A DNA stretch of 64,000 nt from assembly GCA_016432325.1 (NCBI GenBank), contig CP066684.1, forward strand, positions 785,090-849,089, in the 5' to 3' direction. Under the pieces are notes generated by a model, which was not told where the DNA came from, did no database searches, and saw only the letters and a list, made by a program, of their open reading frames with translations. The stretch comes from Candidatus Aenigmatarchaeota archaeon. Lineage in GTDB: Archaea; Aenigmatarchaeota; Aenigmatarchaeia; PWEA01; JACQIF01. Positions 2,139-49,163 of the stretch are shown here, piece by piece. Position 1 is the first letter of the stretch; each line of letters begins with the position of its first letter. A program made the position numbers and the translations under genes.

Positions 2139-4385
2139 ATGCAACTGAGAAAACTGGCAAGCACTGCCGTCGGAGCCCTATTGGCCGGCGCAACGCTCGC
2201 TGTTCCAGCGCTCGGTGCCTCTTTGGATGACCTCCCATCGCCGTTCGTTTCGGACGGTGAGGCGGACTTCACCATAGTGGTAGGCGCGGACGCGAATGCA
2301 GCCGACATAGTAGGAGCCGTAGACATCGCAGCCAGACTCGGCGGTGAGACCGTAACAACGGAATCCGCTGCGGCTGGAGAAGGCCAGGAAGACGTCGAGC
2401 TCGGAGAGGTTCTCTCCACTGAGTTCGGCACAACCCTGGACGACGACGATGTAGGCGTGCTACAAGACACATCGATAGGTTTCGACAGCGAAAACTGGGA
2501 CGTCCACGACGAGATCCGTCTCGCTTCGACAGGCCCTGCTCTTGAAACGAGCTTGAGCTCGAACGAGGAGGACTACAAGGCAGCCCCGGTGATGGAGATA
2601 ACGGCAAAAGGCGACATCGCCTACTACTACCTGTTCGACGAGGCCATAAACCTCTCGGCAAGAGTAGACAGCGACACTGAGCTCGAGATAGACTTCTTGG
2701 GCAAGCAGCTGACCATATCGTCCATAACCGATGCCGACACAATGAAGGCCCAGGTAGGAGAAGAGATTGACTTGGACGCGGGAGAGTCCGCGACCGTTGA
2801 AGGCAAGGTTGTGACGCTGATACAGACCAGCTCCAGCGACGCCAAGATAGATGTCGACGGCACCACAGGCGTAATAGCCGAAGGCAGCACCAAGACAGTC
2901 AACGGCCTTGAGATAAAGGTGGACACCATCTTCGACGACGAAGGATCCGTGGACGACTCCGCAATCCTGATAGTCGGCGAGGACGCTGAAAAGACATACG
3001 ACAACAACGACGAGTACATAGACTTCTGCAGCACGACAGGAGGAGACGACGACTGCGACGAAGACAACCCTGACTGGGTGTGGGTTCTCAACGGCCTCAC
3101 AACCCTACAGAAGGGTGACGTCACGGCAGGCGGCGGCCCGACGATAGGCATACAGAACGACTTCGTCCAGGATGCGAACACAAAGGAACCGCTTCTGGAA
3201 GGAGAGACTCTCTGGCTGCCTCACGACTTTGCCAAGATAGCCTTCGAGGACTTGGTGGCCGACGACTTCGTTAAGGTGACGATAGAGTTCAACGACGCAA
3301 TCGACGTGTCTGACGCGGACTTCGGAGGCATCAACTTCGGAACAAGCGAAGACGGCTTCCTCATAACGGCCGACGTAGAGGAGTCGCTTGTGCTGGAAGA
3401 CCTTGCATCCGGATGGAACGCAAGCTACATCACCGCTGACGTGTCGACAGAGAAGATAGCCCTCATACTGAACGAATCGGCGATGGCTATACAGGTCTTC
3501 TACTGGGACACGAACAACGACGAAGTGCTGGCCGGAAACCTTTCGATACTGCAGGGAGCAGACGCCCTTGCAGCCGGTCTCGACAGGTTCGGCTTCGTGG
3601 ACTTCAAGGACACGACTGGTTCGACAAGAATGCCGCTGGCATTGAACATCTCGAACGAATCGGCGGACAACCAGTTCTTCCTGGGGTTCATGAACAACGA
3701 CACCGAAGTGGCGGACGAAGCGACAGACGACCTGTTCATACAAATGGGAACAGCTGCCCTGATTGACAGGGGAACAGGAACAGCCGCATTCGATTCGTTG
3801 GGCCCAGTGGTGGACGATTCGGAGACAGGAGAACTGCTGTACGGCAGGAGCTCCAACTCCACGGCACCGAACACCCTGAAGGTAGGCACGCGCGACGAAG
3901 ACCAGCTGACGGCATACGGCGTCAAGGTAGGAGACCCCGACTCCAACGGAGCATCTGACAAGGTGATCCTGTGGGTTCCGGGCGACCGCCAGGAAGGCCG
4001 CATAACCATCGGCTCTAGCGCAACGGTAACCGCGGCAGGCGAGCGCAGCGGACAGATAACAACGTCTGTCTCGAAGCTCGACACCGAAACCACGGCAGAG
4101 TCTGAGGGCAACCTCATACTCGTGGGCGGACCATGCGCCAACTCGCTGGTTGCGCAGCTTGCTGACGCAGACAAGTACGGCTGGACGTGCGACGAATCGG
4201 TAGCCTTGGGCGGAAGCGGATACACCATCGAGATAGTCGAGGATGCATTCGCTGACGGCCAGGTAGCCCTGATCGTTGCAGGCCAGAACGCAGACGACAC
4301 CCGCGATGCGGCATCCCGCGTACAGACCTTCGACACAGACGGTCTGACAGGAATGTCCGTCAGGACAGGCGTCTACGCAGCCTAG
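2139..4385 (+). CDS. secreted acidic cell-surface (S-layer-like) protein
   Basis: 748 aa; N-terminal signal peptide (LASTAVGALLAGATLAVPALGAS); very D/E/T-rich; C-terminal NLILVGGPCANSLVAQLAD motif typical of archaeal S-layer domains; strong promoter and long leader. Confidence 0.55.
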   Translation: MQLRKLASTAVGALLAGATLAVPALGASLDDLPSPFVSDGEADFTIVVGADANAADIVGAVDIAARLGGETVTTESAAAGEGQEDVELGEVLSTEFGTTLDDDDVGVLQDTSIGFDSENWDVHDEIRLASTGPALETSLSSNEEDYKAAPVMEITAKGDIAYYYLFDEAINLSARVDSDTELEIDFLGKQLTISSITDADTMKAQVGEEIDLDAGESATVEGKVVTLIQTSSSDAKIDVDGTTGVIAEGSTKTVNGLEIKVDTIFDDEGSVDDSAILIVGEDAEKTYDNNDEYIDFCSTTGGDDDCDEDNPDWVWVLNGLTTLQKGDVTAGGGPTIGIQNDFVQDANTKEPLLEGETLWLPHDFAKIAFEDLVADDFVKVTIEFNDAIDVSDADFGGINFGTSEDGFLITADVEESLVLEDLASGWNASYITADVSTEKIALILNESAMAIQVFYWDTNNDEVLAGNLSILQGADALAAGLDRFGFVDFKDTTGSTRMPLALNISNESADNQFFLGFMNNDTEVADEATDDLFIQMGTAALIDRGTGTAAFDSLGPVVDDSETGELLYGRSSNSTAPNTLKVGTRDEDQLTAYGVKVGDPDSNGASDKVILWVPGDRQEGRITIGSSATVTAAGERSGQITTSVSKLDTETTAESEGNLILVGGPCANSLVAQLADADKYGWTCDESVALGGSGYTIEIVEDAFADGQVALIVAGQNADDTRDAASRVQTFDTDGLTGMSVRTGVYAA

Positions 4386-4400
4386 AAAAACAACGTCGTT

Positions 4401-4438
4401 GGAGTCCGGGATTTAACCCGGCTCCCTTTCTCTTTTTT
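4401..4438. terminator. stem-loop plus oligo-T terminator shared by convergent genes
   Basis: GGAGTCCGGG-ATTTAA-CCCGGCTCC hairpin followed by CTTTCTCTTTTTT, between the surface-protein gene (+) and the GT-C gene (-). Confidence 0.45.
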
Positions 4439-4445
4439 AACAAAA

Positions 4446-5825
4446 TCAGCGTGAGCCCTGTATCTCATAGACGACAACGGCTTCCGGCTTGCCCCACTGG
4501 CTGAACGAACGGAGTTTCGCGTAGTGTTCGCGCGCGTACGCGGCCGCGTATTCAGGCACGACTGGTTCGAAGTCGTATATCAGCGCGTACCTCGCGGTTA
4601 TCTCAGAAAGGTGGGCGGGATCCTTCGGGAAGACGAGGACCTCCTTGCCCGCGAGCACTTCTATCCACGGGTTGACGGCATAGACCGATTTGTTTATGGC
4701 GCGCTCGCCCCCGGGAGGATATGCGGAAGAGTAGTACTCGGATAGTATTGCCCCCTCCGGAAGCGTCTTCAGATACTCCGCGGCCTCCCTGAGCGCCTTT
4801 CCGCCGTCAAAGTCCCCTGCCACCCTGTCATTCGCGGCAGAGAGGGACAGGGCGCACATGGCGACAACGCCGAGTGCGATGAACTGCCTGTTGTTGGGAG
4901 CGAGCCTCCACCAGCTGGCCGCGACCAGCGCGAAGGCCGGGAAGAACGCGACAAGGAACCGCACCTCCTTGTGCGTCTGCAGGCTGAGCGTCAGCACTGC
5001 AACCGCGCATATGGTGAGGAACAGGCTGGGCCTCCTGCGCGTCACTTCGAGAGTGGCGCCTGCCAGCACGGCCAGCGCAAGAGGCCCGAATGTCTCTGCG
5101 GCTCTCGCCGCGTAAAAGTACCACGGATCGGGCTGCAGGCCCGTGACTATCGTAAGGCTCGTCATGAGCCCTCCGAAAGGATTGCCGTAGTATGCGGTTC
5201 CGAGCAGGAAGAGGGGGATGAGGCCGACCAGAGAGCCGGACACGAACGCAGCCGCGGAACGCGGCCCGGACTTCTTCAGCAACCACAGTGCGTATATCGG
5301 AAACAGTATGCCTCCAGGATAGCGGGCCATGAAGGCGAGGCCCGTCGCCACGCCGGCCAGGAACGGGTGCGCGATTTTCTTGTGCCCGTAAAGGAAGAGC
5401 AGGGAAAGCGCGAAGAAGAAGGTGAAGAGGGGCTCTGTCAGCGTCTTGCTCTGGAAGAAGAGGAACTGGCTGAAGGATGCGAACACGGCCGCCGCCATAA
5501 GGCCTTCTGTCCGGCCGTAGACGCGCCTCCCCGCGAGGTAGACCAGCGGTATGGTTGCGAGCCCGAACAGCAGGACGACCACGCGCGACGGGAAGACTGT
5601 ATCAATGCCCAGAGCAGCCAGCACGAGAGGCAGAAGAGGCTGGCGGAACGACTCCACGGACGTGCCAGAGTACAGGGAATAGTGGCCTTCCATCAGGCCG
5701 TGAGAGAGGCCCAGATAAACGGCTTCGTCCCACCACATGCCCTCGTTGACAAAAAGGAAGGACGTCGAGTACGCGGCAGAAAGAACAACCACGAGAAGGA
5801 AGGCGTGGTCCCAGCCCAGTTTCAT
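4446..5825 (-). CDS. GT-C fold glycosyltransferase (GT39/ArnT/PMT-like, dolichyl-phosphate-sugar dependent)
   Basis: 459 aa polytopic membrane protein; N-terminal region resembles PMT/ArnT family (first loop after TM1 with WWDEAVY). Confidence 0.55.
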   Translation of the reverse strand: MKLGWDHAFLLVVVLSAAYSTSFLFVNEGMWWDEAVYLGLSHGLMEGHYSLYSGTSVESFRQPLLPLVLAALGIDTVFPSRVVVLLFGLATIPLVYLAGRRVYGRTEGLMAAAVFASFSQFLFFQSKTLTEPLFTFFFALSLLFLYGHKKIAHPFLAGVATGLAFMARYPGGILFPIYALWLLKKSGPRSAAAFVSGSLVGLIPLFLLGTAYYGNPFGGLMTSLTIVTGLQPDPWYFYAARAAETFGPLALAVLAGATLEVTRRRPSLFLTICAVAVLTLSLQTHKEVRFLVAFFPAFALVAASWWRLAPNNRQFIALGVVAMCALSLSAANDRVAGDFDGGKALREAAEYLKTLPEGAILSEYYSSAYPPGGERAINKSVYAVNPWIEVLAGKEVLVFPKDPAHLSEITARYALIYDFEPVVPEYAAAYAREHYAKLRSFSQWGKPEAVVVYEIQGSR

Positions 5826-9473: not shown

Positions 9474-10584
9474 TCTCTCTTATCACTGTCGTTGCGTACG
9501 AACCTTTCTTGAGCTCAAATCGCAGCGTTGCCGAGCCTGACGCGGTGGAGAACGCAATCTTGGGGTATATCATCGCGCTCCTTATCGCGCCTTTCTGCGC
9601 CAGCTCTGGCATCTTCTGCACAAAAAAGTCCTCTTCTGTGACGCTCTCTTCTTCGAGCACCTTTCGTACGCAATGGTCGAACTCCCCCTTGCCGAGGCTC
9701 GTCTTGTATCCCGTCACGTGGGCAGGGAAGTTGGTTATTGTCTCCTTGCCTTCGAGGAAACGGGACAGCGCGAGATTGAAGATGTATGACTGGTACGCGT
9801 CGATGAACAGTTTTGCGAGTCCGAGAGGAAGCGCGCGCAGCGCCTGTATGGACCCGCCGCCTTCCGCGAGTACGGTCAGCAGCATCCGCTCGTATGCCAT
9901 TCCTCTCGGGAAATATTCCAGCGCGCGCTTGTAGTCCTTCTCTCCGGCCAGACGCCTTCTCGCGCTCCTCGCGTCTTCGGTCTCCCCTTCAAAATCCAGA
10001 GCGAGGTAATCGAATACCGCTCCGTCAAAGTCTCCTTTGATAATCTTCCTGCCGACGCGATGCGTGACTGGACGGTTGGCTCCGAACCGTTGCGGGCCGA
10101 AGAAGTTGGGAATTCCTCTCTGTTCTATTTCGTTTATGAGCACGCGCAAACGCTCGTCCGTCTCGCGGAGGCTGATCTTTATGCCACGAATCGTGACGGC
10201 GAATCTGTTACCAGCGAGTTCTCCCAGATGGATAGGCTCGCCGATCGGTCTGTGTTCAAGAACGCGCAACCCGCTCTCCTCTATTTTCTCTATGTTGGCG
10301 CGTCCGGGCACGGAAAACCACTGTTTCGTTATCGCGTAGCGGTCTTTCATTCCTGCGTACGCCACGGCGCGCCGCTTTAGGCCGAGCGCTTTTGCGATTC
10401 TCTGCGTTGTCTCGAAGGTGTCGAGCCCGCGTTTTTCGACAAACAGCGCGGTGAACGCGTCGCCCTCGGTGAACTCGAGAGGCATCTCTTCCACTACAAA
10501 GTCTTCCATCTTCTGCTTTATCTTGCCGCCTATGCCGGGCGCACGCGTCCAGTAGAGCAGTATGCCAAAATCCTTTTCATCCAT
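9460..10584 (-). CDS. truD: tRNA pseudouridine(13) synthase TruD
   Basis: 374 aa; GxKD motif (YAGMKDRYAITKQW), N-terminal GIGGKIKQ...DFVVEE typical of TruD/Pus7 family. Confidence 0.85.
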   Translation of the reverse strand: MDEKDFGILLYWTRAPGIGGKIKQKMEDFVVEEMPLEFTEGDAFTALFVEKRGLDTFETTQRIAKALGLKRRAVAYAGMKDRYAITKQWFSVPGRANIEKIEESGLRVLEHRPIGEPIHLGELAGNRFAVTIRGIKISLRETDERLRVLINEIEQRGIPNFFGPQRFGANRPVTHRVGRKIIKGDFDGAVFDYLALDFEGETEDARSARRRLAGEKDYKRALEYFPRGMAYERMLLTVLAEGGGSIQALRALPLGLAKLFIDAYQSYIFNLALSRFLEGKETITNFPAHVTGYKTSLGKGEFDHCVRKVLEEESVTEEDFFVQKMPELAQKGAIRSAMIYPKIAFSTASGSATLRFELKKGSYATTVIREITKD

Positions 10585-21331: not shown

Positions 21332-22777
21332 CTACGAACTTTCTGGGGTGTTCCACACATCGACTCCTGACTTACCGGTCTCTCTGCTGGCGCGCCCCGC
21401 TTTGGACAGCTTGTCGAGCGTGGCCATCGCCCGCTGGCGGGAAAGTCCGAGTTCGTTGGCATAGAACCAAATAGGTTTTCCGGGATGCTTCTGCAACGCG
21501 ATTTCCATCGAGTCGAGGGCTGTCGGTGCGATGCTGAGTCTCCAACGATAGTCCTTGCTTTGCGGCACGCTCTCCTTCTCCTCAACGGTCGCATTGCCGT
21601 TCTGCATGTATAACGCGGCGGCGCCGAGAATCCTAGACACGCCGGAAGCATGGACGCCGTGCCTTTCCGCGAGCTCCTTCTGTATCGTCTCCACCTCTCG
21701 GATGTCGTTTGCAGAAAAGTTGATGTCAAGCAACGATCTATCAGACATTCCTATGCATATTCCGTTGTATCTGCGCAGAGCCATAGCCGCATGCTTCGCC
21801 GAATCCTCCGACTGCGCGTCCTTCCAGAAGTCCCTGATGACTTGCATCGGTGAGGTCCCGCCGTCGAACTCCGCCTCAAGGAATCTCTTGATGTCTTTTG
21901 GAACCTCTACAGAGAACGAAACCCTCTTCTCCATCAGGCGCTGTTCGTCAACGGTTGGCGTCACGTCAGGTGTTGGCGTTGCGTTGGACAGGGACACGCT
22001 GACTGCAAGTGTCTTCTGCGGATTCGGTGCAGGTTCAACCGCAACAGGCGCCGCTTGCTCCTTGCGTCCACCACCCGGCCTCAAGAAAAGACCCGTATAC
22101 TCTATTTCTCCCGCGTCGTGCATCTCTCTTAGAAGCGGTTCGCCTGCGCTTGCGGTAAGCCCAATGGCACGCAGCGCCGCAGACGCCATGCCGCCAGGAT
22201 GCTTCTCTGCATAGGATTTTATGGACGCCCTCGCGTCCTTGATGTCCTCAGGATTGTCCGGACGAACGGCGGCGAAGTACTTGAGAATCCTTCCCTCCCT
22301 CGTCCTCATCAGTTCGCCTTTGTTGAACAACGTTCTCAGTTCCATGCCGGTTTTTATCGGATTCACGTTGAGCCTAGCGGCATACGAATATGCGTCTTCC
22401 ATCGGATGCCTGCGAACGTCTGCGAGAAGGTTATCCCTGAATTCTATCGAATGCCTCGATCTTTGCTTTACAACCTTTTCCTTGCGCGGTTTGGGATGCC
22501 CGTTGCTATTACCGGAAAGACCGACAAGCTCGACGCCCGGTCGGATGAAATATCCTCGTCCAGAGTCGTCGCCTCCGTCCTTGTATCCGAGGATGCCGTC
22601 CCTTTTCAGGTGGTTCAGAGCGAACGTTGTTCCCCTGAACGGCGTGCCCAAGTCCTTCGATACCTGACCGGCAAAAACCACTCTGCCCTCTTCAAAATAC
22701 TCGAGAATCTTTCGCGAGAGAGAACTGTATCTTGAGATATCAAAGATTCTTTTTGTGCCGTTGCCGTTTTCTGACAC
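21332..22777 (-). CDS. DNA-binding protein with multiple predicted winged-helix domains
   Basis: 481 aa; three wHTH-like segments at N-terminus, middle and C-terminus; central Pro/Thr-rich linker. Confidence 0.4.
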   Translation of the reverse strand: MSENGNGTKRIFDISRYSSLSRKILEYFEEGRVVFAGQVSKDLGTPFRGTTFALNHLKRDGILGYKDGGDDSGRGYFIRPGVELVGLSGNSNGHPKPRKEKVVKQRSRHSIEFRDNLLADVRRHPMEDAYSYAARLNVNPIKTGMELRTLFNKGELMRTREGRILKYFAAVRPDNPEDIKDARASIKSYAEKHPGGMASAALRAIGLTASAGEPLLREMHDAGEIEYTGLFLRPGGGRKEQAAPVAVEPAPNPQKTLAVSVSLSNATPTPDVTPTVDEQRLMEKRVSFSVEVPKDIKRFLEAEFDGGTSPMQVIRDFWKDAQSEDSAKHAAMALRRYNGICIGMSDRSLLDINFSANDIREVETIQKELAERHGVHASGVSRILGAAALYMQNGNATVEEKESVPQSKDYRWRLSIAPTALDSMEIALQKHPGKPIWFYANELGLSRQRAMATLDKLSKAGRASRETGKSGVDVWNTPESS

Positions 22778-22868
22778 CCTAACCCCGTTTTCAATTGAAG
22801 GCAGTTTTATTTATACGTTCAGTCTCGGCGCGTACGCGCACTTCGTCTCTTGTCGTTGCACTCTATAT

Positions 22869-23339
22869 ATGGAACGCACGAAAATATTATTTCCGATGCA
22901 AGGACACCGCGCCGCGCCAGAGCCTCTTGTAGAGACGCTTTCAGGAGTCTATTCAGGCCACGTCGCAGAGGTCGTTACAGCCCTTGCGCCTGCCACAATC
23001 GGCGTCAACGCTCAGGCAATGGAGGCCACGAGACTCTTCCCGGAACAGCAAGTCTTTGTCACGATAGTCCCGCCGCGCGGCGTGCCGCGTTCCCTCATCT
23101 ACAAGGCCCAGTACGCTGTGCAACCGATACTCGTGCCTGAGAAGCTTCTGACAGAGGAGGACAGGAAACTGCTGCAACTCTACGCGCTGTCCTACGGCTA
23201 CGGCGTCCTTCTGCCGAGCGATCCGGTTTTTGGGCGCGTCAAGAACGGCGACGAAGTGATAATCAACACGCATGTCGACGAGGCGGCTTGGGGCGTGGCG
23301 CGCGTGCTGAAGGACCATTTCAAGAACCCGTGGACCTGA
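22869..23339 (+). CDS. hypothetical protein
   Basis: Track ORF trimmed to ATG at 22869 (MERTKILF); convergent with rtcA, 3' ends overlap about 20 nt. Confidence 0.35.
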   Translation: MERTKILFPMQGHRAAPEPLVETLSGVYSGHVAEVVTALAPATIGVNAQAMEATRLFPEQQVFVTIVPPRGVPRSLIYKAQYAVQPILVPEKLLTEEDRKLLQLYALSYGYGVLLPSDPVFGRVKNGDEVIINTHVDEAAWGVARVLKDHFKNPWT

Positions 23340-24363
23340 CCGTAGTTCCGTCCAGCTCGAGCCTCTTTCCAAGGAACGCTTCGATGACCACGATGTTCGT
23401 GCGCACGTGATTCGTGACTTCTTGCAGATGTGCCTGACCGCCGGACAAGGCGAGGAACGGGAGAATCATGTCAGAGGTCTGCCTGTCCGTTATGCATCCC
23501 GAGTCCATCGCTTTCAGAAGCTTTTCCGCGGCGCTCTTGCCCACGTCTTCTGCGCTCACGCTTTTTTCGCCAATCGCGTCCCCGCCGAGGACAGTGTGCT
23601 CGTACTCTGCGTAACAAACGACACCGGAGCCCGGGTTGTCTGATAGTTCGTACGAAACCTCGACTGTCGTGTCACGGCCTAGCGGTTTGAGCGCCTGTGC
23701 GGCTGCCGCGGCCTGCCTCTCCGCGACGCGCGCCCGCTTCAGTTCTGTCGAGGCCACGGAATAGACGTGTACTCCACGAATGAAACCGCGGTCTGTGAAC
23801 GAGACGGGTTTCCCGCGAGACATCGCCAAGAGCGGCGACGCGCCTTCCGGGGGATGCAGGACGAACGTCACGTCCGCGCCTCCCTTCGGATAAAAGCCTT
23901 CGCGTTTGACATCGAACTCTGTCCTGTAGCCGAACCGCTTGACAACAGGCAGGAAGACCCGCGTTATGTAATCCACGGGCGGGGCCCACTTGCCGTACGT
24001 CGCTCCGCCGCGGACGTGCACGTGTAACGGTTCTTTCAAAACGTACGGAACCAGCTGCAGTGTTTGGAATACGAGACCGACAGAACCGGCTGTCCCTATC
24101 TCAACATCCAGCGCGTCGCGCGTTATCTTTTCCGGAGCGAACGTCACTTCTGTGCTTCCAAGTTTTGCGCCAGTAACTTCCGCGTCGCACAGTAGCGCTA
24201 TGGCTTTGAGCGCCTCGAGGTGCTGCGTCTTGAGTCCGCCCACTTCGCGGCCGCCTCTGATGTTCGTCAGCCTGAACGGCGTCTTCGTTACGACCGACAG
24301 TCCTAACGCAGTACGGAGAATCTGCCCGCCGCCGGAAGAGCCGTCGAGTGAGATCATATACAA
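23320..24363 (-). CDS. rtcA: RNA 3'-terminal phosphate cyclase
   Basis: LDGSSGGGQILRTALGLS N-terminal motif and overall length typical of RtcA. Confidence 0.85.
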   Translation of the reverse strand: MYMISLDGSSGGGQILRTALGLSVVTKTPFRLTNIRGGREVGGLKTQHLEALKAIALLCDAEVTGAKLGSTEVTFAPEKITRDALDVEIGTAGSVGLVFQTLQLVPYVLKEPLHVHVRGGATYGKWAPPVDYITRVFLPVVKRFGYRTEFDVKREGFYPKGGADVTFVLHPPEGASPLLAMSRGKPVSFTDRGFIRGVHVYSVASTELKRARVAERQAAAAAQALKPLGRDTTVEVSYELSDNPGSGVVCYAEYEHTVLGGDAIGEKSVSAEDVGKSAAEKLLKAMDSGCITDRQTSDMILPFLALSGGQAHLQEVTNHVRTNIVVIEAFLGKRLELDGTTVRSTGS

Positions 24364-24447
24364 TAATACCCCGAACGATAATAAAGGCCGCCAGGGCGGT
24401 TTGCGCAGCTCTCGGTCTTTTTATTACTATCGTCGCATATATCGTCT

Positions 24448-25257
24448 ATGAACTCGAAACGAGAGAATTTCGAAAGATTGAGAACCCGGAGGGAATTGTG
24501 GGAGCTAAAACGCCGTGAACAGGCCTTTTATGAAGGATTTCCTAGAAGCGGGTCCGCCGCGACATTCGAAAGAGACGCTGTAGACACAGACACTATTAGG
24601 AGGCATCGCAGTAAACTAGCTTTTCCGCAGCTTGTGCATGCGCGCCTCGGCCTAGTTGAAGATTATTACGAACTCCTCGAGCACATGCAGTTTTTACAGT
24701 ACGCGAAGGCCGTCTTCGAGGGGGGCGCGAAAGTAAAGACCCGTGCAAAATATTTCACGAAACTGAACACGATAAACCCATCCACATTCCATCAGAGTCG
24801 GTATCCAGTTAAGGTCCATGAGCGGGGCTGGGGATACTCTGCGAATTCTAGCACAGATCAGGAAACGGTTGAAAAGATAGACCTTGAACTCGTACGTCTG
24901 GAAGCCAGACTGGACAAACACCCAGTCCGCGGCACGGTGCTGGAAAAAATACCCATCGGGACAAAGCCAATGTGGCGCGAGTATATAGCGGGGATGAAAT
25001 CTTCCGGTCGAATCGTACGCTTCCTATATGAATCCGAAGAGAAGAGGCAGGAAAGACTTGAAGAAATAAAGGATGCCGTGACTGCGAGATGGCGTCATGT
25101 AACCCCATCCGATCCTGAATCATATAAACGCTACAAAGGCGCCGTCTTTGGGTTGAAGAAAGAGGCCGCCCTAATAGGCGCGGAAAGGGCCGCAATATAT
25201 TTCGTTTCGGAATTCGAGAGGCAAAGGCGACAGGCCCCGCCTCTGCCCGACGCCTAA
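24448..25257 (+). CDS. hypothetical protein (low-GC gene)
   Basis: 269 aa; nucleotide composition visibly AT-richer than flanks (about 45-50% GC by eye); no family recognised. Confidence 0.45.
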   Translation: MNSKRENFERLRTRRELWELKRREQAFYEGFPRSGSAATFERDAVDTDTIRRHRSKLAFPQLVHARLGLVEDYYELLEHMQFLQYAKAVFEGGAKVKTRAKYFTKLNTINPSTFHQSRYPVKVHERGWGYSANSSTDQETVEKIDLELVRLEARLDKHPVRGTVLEKIPIGTKPMWREYIAGMKSSGRIVRFLYESEEKRQERLEEIKDAVTARWRHVTPSDPESYKRYKGAVFGLKKEAALIGAERAAIYFVSEFERQRRQAPPLPDA

Positions 25258-25299
25258 ACAAATGTCATTCTTATTTCGGCTCGTACAAAAACATATTCC

Positions 25300-25476
25300 A
25301 TGGAAGCTCTCCTGTACAACAGAAGCGGCTCGCCTGCTCCATGCGACTTCTGCGGCACGCCGATATCGGACTTGGGCCTCGGTTTCCACGACCACATAAA
25401 AACAAGCGAAGGCTGCAGCGCGCAGTACGAGGCGTGGCTCGAGCGCATCAAGCAGGACCATCCAGAAGGGGACTAG
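25300..25476 (+). CDS. small ORF (58 aa) with Cys/His motif, not in ORF track
   Basis: ATG 25300 to TAG 25474-25476; MEALLYNRSGSPAPCDFCGTPISDLGLGFHDHIKTSEGCSAQYEAWLERIKQDHPEGD. Confidence 0.3.
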   Translation: MEALLYNRSGSPAPCDFCGTPISDLGLGFHDHIKTSEGCSAQYEAWLERIKQDHPEGD

Positions 25477-25544
25477 ATAAATATTCGCTGCCTTCGACAA
25501 CGCCCAAGAGAGGGTTTAAATTGTTATCGTTGCCAACAAAGGGC

Positions 25545-26159
25545 ATGGCAACATCACTTCAGATGCTCCGAATAGAGCCTAAAATAGTTGGCGGTAAAAC
25601 GGTCATTCCAGCCTTCGAACTCGCCAACCAGATAGAGTTTCCACAGCAAAACGGTCGCTATCTGACAGCCGCAGAGCATCAGGCCCGCGGACTCGCGACG
25701 CTCGGCATGTTTCGCCACGCTTTCGATACTTCTCCATATTTCAAACAGGCCATCCACGCCCAGCGCGGTTGCGGCGAATGGACCTCGACCGCGTGGGAAG
25801 ACGGTCGTTACGTGCACGAAGGAGGCCGTCTCGTACGCGACGGAAACGCTTGGGAATACGAAGGCGGTACGCGCACGAAGGTGCGAATGCCTGAAGACGG
25901 CTGGGGACTCGAATACCATCCCACGCTTGGCGTTCCTACGAAAACAGGCGACAGAGAAGACGCCGTAGCGAAGTTCGGCCAGGACGCTTCATATTTCTTG
26001 GGCGACAAAGAAGGCTTTAGGCCCGTGATTCGGGGTCGCAGCCTCGGCGACCGCGGGCCCTTCGACGTCGGCGCGAGCTGTGGGCCTGGCGCCGGGAACT
26101 CGGTCGTTGGTGGTCGTGCGTGCCGTAGGTCAGGACTAATGAGATTGGCAAAGGAATAG
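25545..26159 (+). CDS. hypothetical Gly/Trp-rich protein
   Basis: Track ORF 25341.. trimmed to ATG 25545; TATA-like GGTTTAAATTG about 25 nt upstream. Confidence 0.4.
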   Translation: MATSLQMLRIEPKIVGGKTVIPAFELANQIEFPQQNGRYLTAAEHQARGLATLGMFRHAFDTSPYFKQAIHAQRGCGEWTSTAWEDGRYVHEGGRLVRDGNAWEYEGGTRTKVRMPEDGWGLEYHPTLGVPTKTGDREDAVAKFGQDASYFLGDKEGFRPVIRGRSLGDRGPFDVGASCGPGAGNSVVGGRACRRSGLMRLAKE

Positions 26160-26217
26160 ACGACATCATTTCAAGATATGGAATAAGAGAATAGACTCCA
26201 CCCCCAGTAAAAAGCAA

Positions 26218-27501
26218 CTAGACGTCAATCGTATCCCCGACGGCAGGCGCGACGGCGTCAAAGCCGTGCTCTTCCTTGAGCGCCGCGGCGAACTTCTTGG
26301 TGTCCTCCCCGTGGATGCAGACGACGCGTTCCGGATTCAACGTTTTGATGTAGTTCACGAGTTCGCTCCTGCCCGCGTGCGCAGAGAAGTCGAGCTTTTC
26401 AAACGGAACCTTGAGCTTGAACTCCTTCTTCTCCGTCTTGTAGACGCCTGTCTCGAGAAGCGCTTTTCCCGCGGAGCCTTCGGCCTGGAAGCCCGTCATT
26501 GCCAGATACGAGTTTCTGTCATCCTTCAGGTGTTCGAGGTAATGAGCGACAGGACCGCCGTTGAGCATGCCGGAAGTCGTGATGATTACGCACGGATGCT
26601 TCTTCTTGAGAATCTTCTCGCGCGCTTGGTTGTTCGTCACTTTCTTTGCTCTGGCGAACACGCGCTGGAGCATCTGCGGGTATCTCAGGAACTCCGAGTA
26701 GCGCAGGGCGATGGCCGTAGCGTCGCGGCACATGCCGTCCACGTATATCGGCACGTCGATGCCGTACTTTTCCAGCACGAGCAAGAGTTCCTGTGCGCGG
26801 CCGACTGCGAACGAAGAGACCAGCGCGACGCCGTCATTGTTCACGGCTTCGCGTATGCGCTTTATCAGGTGCTTCTCTGTCTCGTCGCGGTTCGGATGCT
26901 CTTTCGTTCCGTAGGTGGACTCTATTATCAGCGTCTTCACGTCCTCGCGCACCGGACTCAGGCCGTTCAGGAGCTCTGTCTTTTCGACCTTCATGTCGCC
27001 TGTGTAGACCACGACTCCTTTTCCTGTGTCTATCACGGCCTGCCCCGAGCCCGGGATGTGGCCCGCGTCGTAGAACATCACCTGCGAGTTGCCTATCTCG
27101 AACTGCTGGCCGTAGGCGACGCGAAACGCGTTGGCGTACATCGTGGAGACGTCCTTGGAGAAATACCCGATGCCGTGGCCCTTGATTTTGGCGAGCTTGA
27201 GGCTGTCCTTCAAAAGCAGGTCCATCAGGTCGAGAGTGGTCGCGGACGCATGCACCGGCCCTCGATAGCCGCGGTTGTAGAGAGAAGGCACGAAACCGCC
27301 GTGGTCCAGGTGGGCGTGCGAGACTACGACGCCGTCGAGTTTAACGGACGCCGCCATCGGGAACGCGGGCTGGTCAACGCCCTCCGCGCCTGTGACGACC
27401 TTTATTCCGTAGTCCATCAATATGCGTTCGCTTCCTGTGTCCAGCACGAATCCGGAACGGCCGACCTCTTGGGCGGCGCCGAGGCATTGTAACTTCATCA
27501 T
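26218..27501 (-). CDS. metallo-beta-lactamase fold beta-CASP ribonuclease (aCPSF2/RNase J-like)
   Basis: HAHLDHGG zinc-binding motif, beta-CASP region, C-terminal IHGE; TATA (TATATAAG on minus) about 30 nt upstream of start at 27501. Confidence 0.7.
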   Translation of the reverse strand: MMKLQCLGAAQEVGRSGFVLDTGSERILMDYGIKVVTGAEGVDQPAFPMAASVKLDGVVVSHAHLDHGGFVPSLYNRGYRGPVHASATTLDLMDLLLKDSLKLAKIKGHGIGYFSKDVSTMYANAFRVAYGQQFEIGNSQVMFYDAGHIPGSGQAVIDTGKGVVVYTGDMKVEKTELLNGLSPVREDVKTLIIESTYGTKEHPNRDETEKHLIKRIREAVNNDGVALVSSFAVGRAQELLLVLEKYGIDVPIYVDGMCRDATAIALRYSEFLRYPQMLQRVFARAKKVTNNQAREKILKKKHPCVIITTSGMLNGGPVAHYLEHLKDDRNSYLAMTGFQAEGSAGKALLETGVYKTEKKEFKLKVPFEKLDFSAHAGRSELVNYIKTLNPERVVCIHGEDTKKFAAALKEEHGFDAVAPAVGDTIDV

Positions 27502-27602
27502 CAAAATCCTGTGCGACGTTTCCCACAAGCGCTTATATAGCTTCTTCTTGAAGTCTTCTTCGGTGTCCCTGATGAGCAACGGCCTTTACGAGAAACGTCT
27601 TT

Positions 27603-28274
27603 GGCGTTAGAATAGGAGTTCTCGGAGGCATAGGCCCTGAAGCAACGGCGCTTTTCTACAGGAAGCTCATCCTGCGGCTGCAGAAGAGAGGCACGATACG
27701 GAGCAACGGCGACTACCCCCAGATAATCATCAACAGCATTCCGGCTCCGGAGCTGGTCGGCGAGATATCAGACGAACACCTCAAGCCGTTCGTTCGCGGA
27801 CTCAAAGAGCTCGACTCGTTTGGCGTTGACTTCATAGTGATGGCCTGCAACACGATACACCTCTTTCATGGAAAATTGCAGAAGGAAGTGCGCGCTCCCA
27901 TCCTAGACCTGCGTGTTGCCGTAAATAAGTCCCTCGAAAGACGCGGAGTGAGGAACGCCCTGATTATTGGGACGCCTAATACCGTGAAACGGAAATTATA
28001 CGGGTTTGGCGGGCGCCTTATTGAGCCTGACGCGGAAGAAACAGAACGCCTCGCGCAGGCGATTCTGAACTTCAACAGAGGAGTGGACAAGGAAGCCCAG
28101 GTCGAGATCACAAGGACAATCTGCAGACGCCATTTGGATAACGGCGCAGAAGCGGTCTTGCTGGCCTGCACGGAGTTCGCGGTGATGCTCGACGGCGAAC
28201 CGCAGACAATAAGCACAATAGACGTGTTGGTGGATGCCGTGATGGAAAAGTTCGTGTCTCCCACAAACGCTTAA
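27603..28274 (+). CDS. aspartate/glutamate racemase family protein; N-terminus lacks in-frame start (possible frameshift)
   Basis: In-frame translation from 27603 gives GVRIGVLGGIGPEAT...ACNT...ACTEF (both catalytic Cys motifs); nearest ATG (27572) is in the +1 frame and terminates at 27608-27610. Confidence 0.55.
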   Translation, partial: GVRIGVLGGIGPEATALFYRKLILRLQKRGTIRSNGDYPQIIINSIPAPELVGEISDEHLKPFVRGLKELDSFGVDFIVMACNTIHLFHGKLQKEVRAPILDLRVAVNKSLERRGVRNALIIGTPNTVKRKLYGFGGRLIEPDAEETERLAQAILNFNRGVDKEAQVEITRTICRRHLDNGAEAVLLACTEFAVMLDGEPQTISTIDVLVDAVMEKFVSPTNA

Positions 28275-28760: not shown

Positions 28761-29228
28761 GTGAACATGGGTCTTGAAGTCGAGAAAAGGCTGGAAGAGA
28801 AGGGCATTTCGTACAGGCTCATAGAGCTTGAAGGGAGAGCCGTGTCTGTGAAAGATGTGCTGGCCCTTGCCAAGGAGAAGATAAAACTCGAAGAGGTGTG
28901 CAAGACTATAGTGGCGAAGGACGGCAAAGGCAACAGCTATGCATTCGTCCTCAAGGGCAACCAAAAGATAGACATGGCCAAAGCCGAACGTCTCGTAGGA
29001 GGAGGTCTCAGAATAGCGAGACCCGAGGAAGTGGAGGATGCCGCGGGCGTCGAGCCCGGCGCTGTGTGCCCGCTCCTGCTGGAGATTCCCATACTTGTTG
29101 ACAGGCGGGTCTTGGATACCGAAAGGATAAACTTCGGTTCCGGAGACCATCTGTATGGGGTGGAAATCTCGACGAAGGATTTGGAGAAGGTCATCGAGTT
29201 TCGCGTGGCGGATTTTGCGAAGGTGTGA
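28761..29228 (+). CDS. ybaK: YbaK/ProX-type aminoacyl-tRNA deacylase
   Basis: 155 aa; AFVLKGNQKIDMAKAERLVG...GAVCPL region resembles YbaK/ProX editing domain. Confidence 0.6.
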   Translation: MNMGLEVEKRLEEKGISYRLIELEGRAVSVKDVLALAKEKIKLEEVCKTIVAKDGKGNSYAFVLKGNQKIDMAKAERLVGGGLRIARPEEVEDAAGVEPGAVCPLLLEIPILVDRRVLDTERINFGSGDHLYGVEISTKDLEKVIEFRVADFAKV

Positions 29229-30598
29229 ACATGGACATGGAGAAAAGGATGGAACTGATAAAACAAGTAGGAGAGGAGATATTAACCGAAGAAGAACTAC
29301 GAGAACTTCTTGCCAAGAAACGCGATCCCATCGCCTACGACGGCTTTGAGCCTTCCGGACGCATGCACATTGCGCAGGGAATTTTGCGTGCGATTAATAT
29401 TAACAAGATGACCCGTGCCGGCTGCAAATTCAAGATGCTTGTTGCGGATTGGCACGCCTGGGCTAACAACAAGATGGGGGGCGACCTCGATGCGATTCAG
29501 ATGGTAGGCGAATACATGATAGAGGTCTGGCGAGCCAGCGGTATGGAACTGGACAACGTGGAGTTTGTCTGGGCCTCGGACCTAGCAAAGGACGACGAGT
29601 ACTGGAAAATCGTTATGAACGTTGCCCGCGCGTCGACGCTCAATCGTATTATACGCACCGCACAAATAATGGGACGATCGGAACGTGACACTCTCTCGGC
29701 CGCGCAGATACTCTATCCATGCATGCAGGCCGCGGACATCTTCTACCTGAAAGCCGACATAACACAACTCGGCATGGACCAGAGGAAGGTGAACGTTCTG
29801 GCTCGCGAGCTGGGGCCGTCGCTTGGGTTTTGGAAACCTGTTGTTGTTTCGCACCATATGCTGATGGGACTTGTGGAACCCACTACAAAACCACATATAG
29901 CTACAAGGCATCTGGATCTTCAGGGAACGTTGCCTTTGCCCAACGGAGGACAATTAAGAATAAAATCAGTTCCATCACAAAAAGGACTTTTACCAGTTTT
30001 AAACCATCCTGCCTATGGCGGCCGAGGATTTAGTGCAAAATTCTTTTACACTCCACCAAAATCAGTGACAGCGACAGAGGAAGAATTGTGGCAACGGGAA
30101 TTAACAAACCTTGATGGGATCGGGGTCAAACTTATATCTCTCGATCAAATGACAGGTGAAGCTCAGTTGGAAATAATTTCAGGACCTTCAGCAGAAGAGC
30201 GGGCGATGGCGATGAAGATGTCCAAATCGGTCCCAGACAGCGCGATATTCATGACAGACTCCGTAGACGATATTAGCGAGAAGATATCGAAAGCGTACTG
30301 TCCAGAAAAGCAGACAAACGAGAATCCGATTTTGGAATATTGCAGGCATATTATTTTCGGGTTGAACGAAGAGATGAAAATAAGCAGATCGGCCAAATGG
30401 GGTGGTAATGTAACGTATAGTTCATACGGTGAGCTTGAAAGGGACTATGCCGGCGGGAAGTTGCACCCAATGGATTTGAAAGCCGCCGTGATAAAATATT
30501 TGGTGAAAGCAGTCGAGCCGATACAAAAGCACTTCTCCAAGAACAAGAAAGCCGCCGAACTTCTGAAGTTCGTGGAAGGCGCGAAGGTGACCAGATGA
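29225..30598 (+). CDS. tyrS: tyrosyl-tRNA synthetase (archaeal class I) with large internal insertion
   Basis: GFEPSGRMHIAQG (HIGH-region equivalent), KMSKS, C-terminal KAYCPEK...LHPMDLKAAV; about 110 extra residues between HHMLMGL and KMSKS. Confidence 0.75.
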   Translation: MNMDMEKRMELIKQVGEEILTEEELRELLAKKRDPIAYDGFEPSGRMHIAQGILRAININKMTRAGCKFKMLVADWHAWANNKMGGDLDAIQMVGEYMIEVWRASGMELDNVEFVWASDLAKDDEYWKIVMNVARASTLNRIIRTAQIMGRSERDTLSAAQILYPCMQAADIFYLKADITQLGMDQRKVNVLARELGPSLGFWKPVVVSHHMLMGLVEPTTKPHIATRHLDLQGTLPLPNGGQLRIKSVPSQKGLLPVLNHPAYGGRGFSAKFFYTPPKSVTATEEELWQRELTNLDGIGVKLISLDQMTGEAQLEIISGPSAEERAMAMKMSKSVPDSAIFMTDSVDDISEKISKAYCPEKQTNENPILEYCRHIIFGLNEEMKISRSAKWGGNVTYSSYGELERDYAGGKLHPMDLKAAVIKYLVKAVEPIQKHFSKNKKAAELLKFVEGAKVTR

Positions 30599-30644
30599 AA
30601 ACGCGCGGCGTTTTCAAAGTTACCTCCAACGGGGTCGGTAACCG

Positions 30645-33190: not shown

Positions 33191-35233
33191 ATGGCGACGC
33201 TTGTCATCGCGGAAAAGCCCAAGGCCGCAGAGAAGATTGCCGCCGCGCTGGGAACGCCTAAAGCGTCAAAGAAGGGCAAGGCCGTTTTTTACGAAGTGCA
33301 GCACGACGGAGACACTATTTACGTCGTCCCGTCTGTCGGTCATATCTTTTCTTTAAAACAGAAAGGCAAAGGATGGACTTACCCAATCTTCGATATCGAG
33401 TGGCTGCCTTCGTTCGAGGTTTCGAAGAGCTCCAAGTTCACCAAAGCGTATTACGACAATCTGGCGAAGATTGCAAAGAAATGCAGCGATTTCGTCATCG
33501 CAACGGACTTCGATACGGAAGGTTCGGTCATCGGTTACAACATTCTTCGCTTCATCTGCGAAACGGACGACGCGAGGCGTATGAAGTTTTCGACGCTCAC
33601 GACGGACGAGCTCCGCGAGGCGTATGAAAGCGCGGGTCCCCTCGACACGCCGCAGATAGAAGCCGGCCTTGCGCGGCACGTGCTCGATTGGCTATGGGGC
33701 ATCAACGCGTCCCGCGCGCTTACAAAAGCCATAAACTCCGGCGGCAAGGGCTTCACTTTGATGAGTACGGGACGCGTTCAGGGTCCGTCGCTGAAACTGC
33801 TCGCAGATCGCGAACGCGAAATCCGCGCGTTCAAGTCCGAACCCTACTGGGACATCGAGGCTGACGTCGACGGTCCGTTGACCGTGTTCTGCGAAGAAGA
33901 ACACATCCCCGAAAAGGAAAGGACAATTGAGATAAAGGACGCTTGTGGAAAAACGGCCACCGTAGAATCGCTGGACAAAAAGGAGTACAAGCAAGCGCCT
34001 CCGACGCCTTTCGATCTGACGTCGCTGCAGATGGACGCCTACGCCGCTTTCGGATTTTCGCCTTCTGCGACGCTGTCGCTCGCGCAGTCGTTGTATACGG
34101 AAGGATTGATTTCGTATCCGCGCACGTCTTCGCAGAAACTGCCGGCGAAGCTCGGTCTTGAGCGTATCTTGAAAGCGCTGGCCGAGCAGAAAGCCTATGC
34201 GGCGCACGTATGCTCGCTTCCAACTCCTCTGCAGCCGAACGAAGGCCCGAAGAGCGACGCGGCTCACCCGGCGATACACCCCACTGGAGAAAAGCCCGCG
34301 GCGTTGACGGCAGACCAGAAAAAGCTCTACGACATGGTCGTTCATCGTTTCATCGCGACGTTCGCGAAGCCCGCGACGCGCGAAACCGTCAGGCTCGTGC
34401 TGGACATAAACGGCATCGCGTTCTCCGCGTCCGGAAACAGAACCGTGGATCCTCAATGGCGCGAGATTTACAAATTCTCGAAGCACAAGGAAGTCATTCT
34501 TCCCGCACTGACGAAGGGACAGGAGCTGAACGTTCTGGACGTTCGCGTTCTCGACAAGGAGACGCAGCCGCCGAAACGCTATACAGAAGCGTCGCTTGTC
34601 CACGAACTCGAGAAAAGGTCTTTGGGCACGAAAGCGACGAGGTCTGAGATCATCCGCACGCTCTACGAACGTTCATACGTCAAGGACAGGTCCATCGTTG
34701 TCACGGAACTCGGTCTCGGGGTCATAGGCACGTTGGAAAAGTATGTGCCTGAAATCCTCTCCGAGGAGATGACCCGTTCGTTCGAGCAGGAGATGGAATC
34801 TATAATGGAGAACAGGTCCACGAAAGAAAAGGTCATCGAAGGCGCGAAGAAGGAACTGACGACGCTTCTGGTGAAGTTCAAGGACCACGAGAAGGACATA
34901 GGCGCGGAGCTTGGTCCGCTGCTCGCCGAGACGCGCAAGCGTGCGTACACTGTAGGCCCGTGCCAGAAGTGCGGCGGCGAGCTGAAGATTGTGACAGCCA
35001 AGGCATCCAGGAAGCGCTTCGTCGGTTGTACAGGATATCCGAAGTGCGAATCTGGCTACCCGTTACCCCAGTACGGCCTGATAAAGACAGGCGGCGTGAA
35101 GTGCAAGACGTGCGGTCTGCCGACGGTCTTGATAATAAGGAAGGGCAAGAGGCCGTGGAACATGTGCATAGACCCGAAGTGTACGTCTAAGACGGAGTGG
35201 GGCAAGTCCAAGGATGCCGCGCAAACACCTTGA
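33191..35233 (+). CDS. topA: DNA topoisomerase, type IA
   Basis: TOPRIM N-terminus (LVIAEKP), active-site SYPRTSS, C-terminal CxxC zinc ribbons. Confidence 0.85.
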   Translation: MATLVIAEKPKAAEKIAAALGTPKASKKGKAVFYEVQHDGDTIYVVPSVGHIFSLKQKGKGWTYPIFDIEWLPSFEVSKSSKFTKAYYDNLAKIAKKCSDFVIATDFDTEGSVIGYNILRFICETDDARRMKFSTLTTDELREAYESAGPLDTPQIEAGLARHVLDWLWGINASRALTKAINSGGKGFTLMSTGRVQGPSLKLLADREREIRAFKSEPYWDIEADVDGPLTVFCEEEHIPEKERTIEIKDACGKTATVESLDKKEYKQAPPTPFDLTSLQMDAYAAFGFSPSATLSLAQSLYTEGLISYPRTSSQKLPAKLGLERILKALAEQKAYAAHVCSLPTPLQPNEGPKSDAAHPAIHPTGEKPAALTADQKKLYDMVVHRFIATFAKPATRETVRLVLDINGIAFSASGNRTVDPQWREIYKFSKHKEVILPALTKGQELNVLDVRVLDKETQPPKRYTEASLVHELEKRSLGTKATRSEIIRTLYERSYVKDRSIVVTELGLGVIGTLEKYVPEILSEEMTRSFEQEMESIMENRSTKEKVIEGAKKELTTLLVKFKDHEKDIGAELGPLLAETRKRAYTVGPCQKCGGELKIVTAKASRKRFVGCTGYPKCESGYPLPQYGLIKTGGVKCKTCGLPTVLIIRKGKRPWNMCIDPKCTSKTEWGKSKDAAQTP

Positions 35234-35271
35234 CATACCCGTTATTAATAGATTCGTCCTCTATCCGAAGT

Positions 35272-36135
35272 ATGCTATTGGACTTTGTCGTTGATGGCCA
35301 TGGCAAAACCAAGATCTTTGTCGAACGGCTTGAAACGCTTTTTGGTGCGACGTTTGTGGCGGCGTCACCGAACCACCCGCTGAGCCATGGAAAGCCTCTG
35401 GGAAGTTTTACCGGAGCATACGCGGCCAATCCCGTCAACAACGAGAAAATTCCTGTTTGGGTTGCGGCGTATGTCAGAGACGGAGCCGTCGCGGCCGTTC
35501 CCGCTCACAGCCAAGCGGACTATGTGTTTGCAAAGGAACACGGACTACCCATCAGAACAGTAATCGAACCGCTAACAGGCGAGCCTCAGCAAAATCCCGA
35601 ACTCCGACGCAGTATAGTCGCGCTTGTTGCAAATCCGCAGACAAACCAAATCCTCTCCATTAACTGGGGGCCGCAGGCCGGAGGCAATCTTCTCATAGGA
35701 GGCGGCCGCGAAGAAAATGAAGATCCCGTTGAGTGCGCTAAACGGGAGATAGCCGAAGAGACAGGGTATAGAGACGTGACGTTGGTCGCACAGTCCGAGC
35801 GCATCCACCACCGCTACTTTGCGCACTCGAAGAACAAGGCTCGCCAGATAGAAGCGATCGGCCTTTTCTTCAATCTGCAGAGCAACGAAAGGATAAATCC
35901 AAAACTAGAGGCAGACGAAGTTGGCAGGTTTAAAGTCGAATGGCTTTCCGAACCCGATGCGGCGGAACGGATCAGAGACGAACTCCATCGTTACGTGTTC
36001 GCCAAATTCATCAGGGACGAAGTTCACAGCGGCGAAGGCATCCTCATTAACTCCGGCAATTATAGCGGTATGAATTCGAGACAAGCCTGCGAACAGATGA
36101 CGAAGGACTTCGTAACCCAGATCGAACAGCGTTGA
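35272..36135 (+). CDS. chimeric protein: LeuRS-like linker segments flanking a Nudix hydrolase domain
   Basis: ETLFGATFVAASPNHPL and IPVWVAAYVRDGAVAAVPAHSQADYVFAKEHGLPI resemble bacterial-type LeuRS motifs; central Nudix box GGGREENEDPVECAKREIAEETGY; C-terminal ILINSGNYSGMNS resembles LeuRS segment after CP1. Confidence 0.5.
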   Translation: MLLDFVVDGHGKTKIFVERLETLFGATFVAASPNHPLSHGKPLGSFTGAYAANPVNNEKIPVWVAAYVRDGAVAAVPAHSQADYVFAKEHGLPIRTVIEPLTGEPQQNPELRRSIVALVANPQTNQILSINWGPQAGGNLLIGGGREENEDPVECAKREIAEETGYRDVTLVAQSERIHHRYFAHSKNKARQIEAIGLFFNLQSNERINPKLEADEVGRFKVEWLSEPDAAERIRDELHRYVFAKFIRDEVHSGEGILINSGNYSGMNSRQACEQMTKDFVTQIEQR

Positions 36136-48907: not shown

Positions 48908-48911
48908 CGGA

Positions 48912-49163
48912 TCACCTGTATATGTTTTTCCTGTGCCCAAGAGAAAGGATAAAGACGACCTTCTCTTTATTGTCAAGCTTTGCCAATACGCGGTAGTCGC
49001 CGACGCGCAGTTTATAATCCACCCTGCCTGTAAGCCGTTCCAGATAGTGCGCCGGGCGGGAGGCGGCCCTTTCCAGACTGTCCAGGATGCGTTTGGCCGT
49101 GGCGTTGTCCAGTTTCCGCAGTTCGGAGACCGCCTCGTCGGAGAACACAAGCCTGAAGGTCAC
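48912..49163 (-). CDS. relE: RelE/ParE-family type II toxin
   Basis: 83 aa; C-terminal YRVLAKLDNKEKVVFILSLGHRKNIY typical of RelE/ParE. Confidence 0.7.
   Translation of the reverse strand: MTFRLVFSDEAVSELRKLDNATAKRILDSLERAASRPAHYLERLTGRVDYKLRVGDYRVLAKLDNKEKVVFILSLGHRKNIYR

Follow-up and report, generated by a model that had tools for sequence, protein, structure and literature searches.

The region under study lies within a 64-kb stretch of the chromosome of Candidatus Aenigmatarchaeota archaeon (hereafter the window, from the first position of which all coordinates are counted), a housekeeping stretch encoding ribosomal protein L11, tyrosyl- and seryl-tRNA synthetases (TyrRS and SerRS), topoisomerase I, a Hel308-type helicase, SMC/ScpA and TruD. 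Two of its genes, coding for the RNA 3′-terminal phosphate cyclase RtcA and a β-CASP ribonuclease, retain the order and orientation found in related archaea, but lie 1,854 bp (1.85 kb; 24364-26217) apart, with three open reading frames (ORFs), ORF269, ORF58 and ORF204, located between them on the opposite strand. The three genes (locus tags HYS81_05075, HYS81_05080 and HYS81_05085) have already been deposited, each annotated as "hypothetical protein". The original prediction, made from the sequence alone, had delimited an AT-rich island of suggested foreign origin at 24364-25544 and placed two uncharacterized proteins in it. Both ORFs are present, exactly as predicted, beside rtcA (Table 1), while the unit itself is larger than proposed, extending to 26217 and including ORF204 as a third gene. 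We consider it probable that the region represents a lineage-specific accessory insertion into an ancestral β-CASP/rtcA unit of the DPANN archaea.

The synteny of the two boundary genes was compared among relatives identified by an RtcA scan of one genome per GTDB species, which yielded 21 loci. The closest RtcA matches derive from metagenome-assembled genomes (MAGs) of the Aenigmatarchaeota, Nanoarchaeota and Woesearchaeota, and share 39-45% amino acid identity with the host protein. In six loci, belonging to the Aenigmatarchaeota, the Nanoarchaeota and an unclassified archaeon, an ortholog of the β-CASP protein (39-42% amino acid identity) lies on the same strand as rtcA and directly upstream of it, the two genes being separated by 5 bp (L013), 32 bp (L011), 79 bp (L006), 324 bp (L002), 409 bp (L003) and 412 bp (L009). 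Given that the genes are contiguous and co-oriented in these six DPANN relatives and split in the host, the insertion is most parsimoniously the derived state. Homologs of ORF269, ORF58 and ORF204 were found in none of the 21 related loci. The trio is poorly conserved and only here is the pair split, among relatives which are, however, distant. Insertion-free variants within the host population were sought via identical RtcA proteins, and the two contigs retrieved both carry the insert. No β-CASP/rtcA adjacency was observed in the non-DPANN loci (L015-L022), which include members of the Bathyarchaeota, Thermoplasmata and Methanobacteriota, and the pair therefore appears to be characteristic of the DPANN archaea. 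Shared by members of at least two phyla, it may constitute a conserved operon acting in the cleavage of RNA and the modification of its ends. No paper naming RtcA, β-CASP and archaea together was found in the open-access full-text literature.

The slot between the β-CASP-encoding gene and rtcA is variable in other lineages too. A small gene for a LigD-type 3′-phosphoesterase, located on the opposite strand, occupies it in both L003 and L009, such that an end-healing enzyme adjoins an end-cyclising one in these two loci. The L003 copy (4096-4476, minus strand, of that locus) matches the corresponding Pfam family (PF13298; e-value: 2.2e-40), while the L009 copy, a 124 amino acid ORF at about 9589-10000, is probably the same enzyme, as judged by an N-terminal sequence near-identical to that of the L003 protein. 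In a further locus (L010), the slot harbors a TrmB-family regulator and a gene of no known function.

Table 1. Genes and spacers of the insert and its two boundary genes (positions in the 64-kb window)
Feature	Position	Strand	Evidence or remark
rtcA (RNA 3′-terminal phosphate cyclase), left boundary gene	23320-24363	-	Pfam RTC (e-value: 1.4e-64), RTC_insert (e-value: 8.7e-19)
rtcA-ORF269 divergent spacer, 84 bp, AT-rich	24364-24447		47.6% GC
ORF269 (HYS81_05075; QQG39710.1), orphan protein, 269 aa	24448-25257	+	ORF
ORF58 (HYS81_05080), DUF7501 micro-protein, 58 aa	25300-25476	+	Pfam PF24333
ORF204 module (HYS81_05085), 204 aa	25516-26159 (coding sequence 25545-26159)	+	29-nt promoter-like leader with GTTTAAAT
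ORF204/β-CASP convergent spacer, 58 bp, AT-rich	26160-26217		37.9% GC
β-CASP/metallo-β-lactamase ribonuclease without KH domains (aCPSF2-like), right boundary gene	26218-27579	-	Pfam Beta-Casp (e-value: 2.5e-21), RMMBL (e-value: 4.7e-14), Lactamase_B_2

The start codons of both boundary genes are likely to lie within the frames tabulated. That of rtcA is likely the ATG at 24357, giving the 345 amino acid form that is also called in the Logan assemblies, and the true start of the β-CASP-encoding gene is likely near Met27/28.

Foreign origin had initially been argued from a GC content of 45-50% in surroundings of roughly 60%. A dip does exist, but it had been overstated: the stretch 24364-25544 has a GC content of 50.8%, against a mean of 56.0% for the window (standard deviation for equal-sized segments: 2.4%). 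The dip is modest: about 2.6% of the equal-sized segments show values as low, and the same level is reached in three further stretches of the window. At the level of individual genes, the GC content of ORF269 is 50.7% (3.6% of equal-sized segments are as low), while ORF58 (59.3%) is not low, and ORF204 (58.7%), rtcA (59.4%) and the β-CASP-encoding gene (58.1%) have similar values. The spacers on both sides of ORF58 show a GC content of 33-44%. Low GC is thus a property of ORF269 and the AT-rich spacers alone, and the insert as a whole (53.0%) is equalled by 9% of equal-sized segments. The core gene encoding TyrRS, with 48.5%, falls below ORF269. Since the dip is modest, is matched elsewhere in the window and is surpassed by TyrRS, GC content by itself is no mark of foreignness.

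Codon usage separates the three inserted genes more clearly. With 27 confident host genes as the training set of a codon model, the leave-one-out scores of these genes average 0.366 ± 0.115 bits/codon, with a minimum of 0.101 for TyrRS. ORF269 scores 0.073, lower than all 27 host genes, and ORF204 (0.111) is likewise atypical, while the score of ORF58 (0.268) is normal for the host. For each of the three, this model ranks the annotated frame first among the six.

ORF269 codes for a basic (isoelectric point, pI: 9.7), hydrophilic, cysteine-free protein with a predicted all-helical structure. The frame in which it lies stays open over 290 codons, which occurred with a probability of about 2e-4 (~0.02%) in first-order Markov simulations of the same 936 nt, the codon positions display GC1>GC2 periodicity, and the sequence is 100% identical in three independent Logan assemblies, all of which derive from the same population. 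ORF269 is a statistically non-random ORF and most probably not a chance frame. No family could be assigned to its product in Pfam, NCBIfam, PHROGs or PADLOC. A word-indexed search of 5.8 billion clusters recovered only the protein itself, an exhaustive phmmer search against 1.84 billion representative proteins gave no credible match beyond self, and no match was obtained among PDB sequences, plasmids and phages (tblastn), IMG/VR or JGI metagenomes. Two candidate relatives were rejected: a 2,552 amino acid repeat adhesin-like protein (e-value: 2e-4), the score of which was summed over ten repeats and is spurious, and the 481 amino acid protein encoded beyond rtcA (ORF481), with which ORF269 shares 23% amino acid identity at a BlastP e-value of 0.06. 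The AlphaFold2 model built from the single sequence is unreliable (predicted local distance difference test, pLDDT: 45.8), and comparison of this model to the PDB by means of Foldseek returned noise only (best e-value: 1.9; template modeling (TM) score below 0.2). ORF269 appears to be a fast-evolving or recently acquired orphan gene.

The profile searches, which left ORF269 without a family, were productive for ORF58. Its product belongs to Pfam DUF7501 (PF24333; Bitscore: 49.9 against a gathering cut-off of 27; e-value: 3.6e-13), with residues 11-54 aligning to positions 9-52 of the 58-position profile, in agreement with the precomputed PF24333 annotation. The only relatives found outside the host genome are haloarchaeal; those recovered by tblastn share 37-51% amino acid identity and are encoded on megaplasmids of Haloarcula, Halomarina, Natrinema and others. 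When ORF58 is aligned with three haloarchaeal homologs, the residues C15, C18, H32 and C39 (C15-x2-C18 ... H32 ... C39) are invariant and form a putative CCHC zinc site. The invariant C-x2-C ... H ... C set and a size of 58-66 amino acids are common to ORF58 and the haloarchaeal DUF7501 proteins, such as HVO_1252 of Haloferax volcanii, while ORF58 differs in lacking their short N-terminal extension and in being encoded by a DPANN archaeon (Aenigmatarchaeota) from groundwater. The three haloarchaeal contexts show stand-alone genes of ~65 codons in unrelated neighborhoods, none of them near rtcA, and two of the three homologs adjoin universal stress protein genes. The family has no known function, and the sole mention found in the literature is the entry for HVO_1252, which is among the most down-regulated genes of a provirus-free H. 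volcanii strain (PMC12091111). Against PHROGs, only a weak match was obtained (phrog_13110; e-value: 0.007).

A further comparison can be drawn with the one-domain C(P)XCG zinc-finger micro-proteins of haloarchaea, including HVO_0758 and Brz of Halobacterium salinarum, which like ORF58 comprise fewer than 70 amino acids and combine a C-x-x-C-G motif (CDFCG in ORF58) with a predicted single zinc site. This class is, however, defined by two such motifs, while ORF58 has only one (residues 15-19), completed by H32 and C39, and as such falls outside the class. Known roles of C(P)XCG micro-proteins lie in regulation or in adaptation to stress; Brz controls the transcription of an adjacent gene (PMC11241148, PMC10716476, PMC2253796). 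By analogy, ORF58 is most plausibly a small zinc-dependent factor that binds nucleic acid or protein.

The third gene, ORF204, belongs to a multi-copy, Aenigmatarchaeota-specific family of four members that share 80-84% amino acid identity; one relative of ORF204, at 80% identity, is encoded in the Aenigmatarchaeota assembly GCA_016198635.1. The ratio of non-synonymous to synonymous substitution rates (dN/dS) in this family is 0.15-0.21, and ORF204 is therefore a real gene under purifying selection. A paralog (HYS81_03865; 268 amino acids) is encoded in the same genome, and ORF204 resembles an internal-deletion variant of it, with its first 195 residues and its final few (L.RL.E) retained and about 63 residues between them missing. 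In another Aenigmatarchaeota MAG (L023), the gene upstream of the ORF204 homolog codes for a methyltransferase, and DNA homology to the window begins at 25516, 29 nt before the ATG of ORF204, such that the GTTTAAAT box is included. This shared border suggests that the gene takes its promoter along when it relocates or is duplicated. The Logan assemblies SRR12113385, SRR12113430 and SRR12113384, from the same population, match the window with 100% identity and break off, all three, at exactly 25607, 63 nt into ORF204, which would be explained if the ORF204 paralog(s) gave rise to a repeat or branch point. No match to ORF204 was found in Pfam, NCBIfam, PHROGs, PADLOC or the PDB, nor in plasmids and phages (tblastn), IMG/VR or JGI metagenomes, and its AlphaFold2 model, built from a four-sequence alignment, is unreliable (pLDDT: 35.5).

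Promoter-like signals accompany each of the inserted genes. An A/T-rich TATA-like box is located ~25-32 nt before the start codon of rtcA, ORF269, ORF58, ORF204 and many host genes in the window. Two of these boxes lie within the 84-bp spacer from which rtcA and ORF269 diverge, cctttattatcg on the minus strand for rtcA and ctttttattact for ORF269, each about 25-30 nt upstream of its gene, with a short palindrome of 12 nt (CCGCCAGGGCGG) between them. If the boxes function as promoters, their spacing would fit independent leaderless transcription of each gene. A T5 run (TTGCTTTTTAC) that directly follows the stop codon of the β-CASP-encoding gene on the minus strand is a possible archaeal oligo-T terminator.

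Hallmarks of mobility are absent. The insert codes for no integrase, transposase, replication protein or mobility domain, and its borders display no target-site duplications and no direct or terminal inverted repeats beyond those expected by chance. Furthermore, no tRNA genes are present in the window and no Rfam families were found. The insert resembles generic genomic islets and variable slots in that relatives lack it at the syntenic position, in its orphan content, in the atypical codons of two of its three genes and in its slightly lower GC content. It is unlike typical islands in that it lacks an integrase, a tRNA target, direct repeats and mobility genes, and measures only 1.85 kb, with a mixed composition and one gene that is multi-copy within the genome.

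A possible role in RNA repair or defence, raised alongside the observation that no RtcB ligase is encoded nearby, could not be substantiated. The observation on RtcB itself holds across the 64-kb window: a Pfam scan of the ORFs of at least 400 amino acids, with the shadows of identified genes left out, revealed no RtcB, so that of the Rtc system only RtcA is represented near the insert. Archaeal rtcA genes, however, commonly occur without an adjacent rtcB, and its absence is no signal by itself. No family acting on RNA ends or regulating rtc was detected for ORF269 or ORF204 in Pfam, NCBIfam or the PDB, and the sole Pfam match, that of ORF58, is to a domain of unknown function; NCBIfam gave no match for ORF58 either. 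The PADLOC defence families gave no match at an e-value of 1 or below for any of the three proteins, and the phage collections (INPHARED, IMG/VR) gave none either. In the rtcBA operon of Escherichia coli, the regulator rtcR is divergently encoded, and the host locus is similar in that rtcA has a divergently transcribed neighbor. It differs in that RtcB is missing from the window and in that ORF269 possesses no sigma-54 activator, CARF or other recognizable domain; the conserved upstream partner of rtcA in the relatives of the host is furthermore the β-CASP ribonuclease, and not RtcB as in E. coli. The gain is thus probably that of ordinary accessory genes, with nothing that ties the insert to RNA repair or defence.

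In the sequence of events that we favor, an ancestral DPANN unit would have comprised the β-CASP ribonuclease gene and, downstream of it on that strand, rtcA, and three genes on the opposite strand would have been inserted between them, each preceded by a TATA-like box spaced in a way compatible with leaderless transcription. It is probable that the slot was filled piecemeal, and not by one island, because ORF269, ORF58 and ORF204 differ in composition and distribution. The insert looks mosaic, with ORF58 and ORF204 sharing the GC content of the host and ORF204 recurring alone elsewhere with its promoter. The insertion would have uncoupled rtcA from the β-CASP transcript, and rtcA would now be driven from the 84-bp bidirectional promoter region that it has in common with ORF269. 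The initial claim of foreign origin is in part borne out by the split synteny, the orphan status of ORF269 and its atypical codons, while GC content contributes little and the mosaic structure does not accord with a single foreign island.

Several observations weigh against the proposed insertion. The β-CASP/rtcA adjacency is missing in three of the ten informative DPANN loci (L007, L008 and L014), so that its ancestral state is likely but not certain. Given the low RtcA identities, the relatives are too distant to fix the age of the insertion or the presence of the genes in sister genomes. The dip in GC content is small and has counterparts elsewhere in the window, and low codon scores can equally reflect low expression or amino acid composition, as the score of the core TyrRS illustrates. 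Finally, because the LigD-type phosphoesterase, as an end-healing enzyme, fills the slot in some relatives, the slot genes may be linked to RNA-end metabolism.

Among the other explanations for the locus, it is unlikely that the segment was acquired as one piece, as the decayed remnant of a virus or plasmid or as a small defence- or toxin-type cassette. The orphan content, the lower GC, the atypical codons of ORF269 and the multi-copy ORF204, which relocates with its promoter, would agree with such an origin, as would the weak phrog_13110 match of ORF58 and the fact that its detectable relatives outside the host are found only in another phylum, on haloarchaeal megaplasmids; yet there is no integrase, transposase, replication gene or tRNA, nor are there att-like or terminal inverted repeats, searches of IMG/VR, INPHARED and PADLOC gave no match, and the dissimilarity of the three genes in GC and distribution argues against a single-piece origin. 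We regard it as improbable that ORF269 is a non-functional chance or decaying frame, the low GC of which would reflect non-coding or relaxed sequence. The rarity of its open run in the simulations, a frame that is the best of six with GC1>GC2 periodicity, a TATA-like box at about -25 to -30 and its identity over three assemblies, even if these stem from one population, speak for a functional gene, in spite of the homolog that was nowhere found, the lowest codon-model score in the window and the low confidence of the predicted structure.

It has also to be considered whether the inserted genes form an accessory or regulatory Rtc module, in which ORF269 and/or ORF58 would bind RNA or the shared promoter, control rtcA or add an activity on RNA ends. 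The divergence of ORF269 and rtcA from a spacer in which a palindrome separates two TATA-like boxes, the high pI of ORF269, the CCHC zinc-finger motif of ORF58 and an arrangement analogous in logic to that of the divergent rtcR of E. coli would be expected of such a module, and the LigD 3′-phosphoesterase in L003 and L009 illustrates that genes in the slot can be themed by function. We nevertheless find this improbable, since Pfam and NCBIfam detect no DNA- or RNA-binding or catalytic domain, ORF269 has no homolog beside any other rtcA, the haloarchaeal DUF7501 genes stand alone and away from rtcA, ORF204 recurs away from it, and a 12-nt palindrome is weak evidence. More speculative still, and very improbable in our estimation, is the notion that the slot serves as a collecting point for RNA-end-processing partners, with ORF269 and ORF58 forming an as yet unseen regulator or cofactor of RtcA under the promoter shared with rtcA.

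Read as a lineage-specific accessory insertion, the locus illustrates, in an unremarkable way, that DPANN genomes, despite their reduction, continue to acquire lineage-specific orphans, even inside conserved gene pairs. What is new is a non-haloarchaeal member of the uncharacterized DUF7501 family and a further orphan of the DPANN archaea. Of greater use, as a by-product, is the conserved DPANN β-CASP/RtcA pair, at times joined by a LigD-type 3′-phosphoesterase, which suggests a pathway coupling RNA cleavage to end modification. To our knowledge, no Rtc regulator has been described in the lineage of the host; if the inserted genes did interact with RtcA, for which no support was found here, they would be the first candidates for a regulator or cofactor of Rtc in archaea.

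Several additional features were observed in the window. The flank beyond rtcA is also poorly characterized: the 481 amino acid protein (21332-22777, minus strand) shows weak MarR/winged helix-turn-helix and DUF5817_CT matches, while an ORF of 194 (or 147) amino acids at 22755-23339 (plus strand), the 3′ end of which overlaps the 3′ end of rtcA, belongs to no family. Homologs of these two proteins were found in none of the 21 related loci. On the other side of the insert, an Asp/Glu racemase-family ORF (27837-28274, plus strand) covers only positions 72-205 of the 211-position profile, and may thus be truncated at the N-terminus, represent a pseudogene or have a mis-set start. The TyrRS-encoding gene (29225-30598) has the lowest GC content of the neighborhood, falling to 44-46% at 29850-30600, and its Pfam tRNA-synt_1b match is divided into two stretches, suggesting an insertion of ~100 amino acids after residue 221. 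A 312 amino acid protein (35197-36135, plus strand) combines the editing (CP1) domain of leucyl-tRNA synthetase and a NUDIX hydrolase domain in one chain, and stand-alone editing proteins of the YbaK type (28761-29228) and an AlaX-like type (48203-49150) are encoded in the same window.

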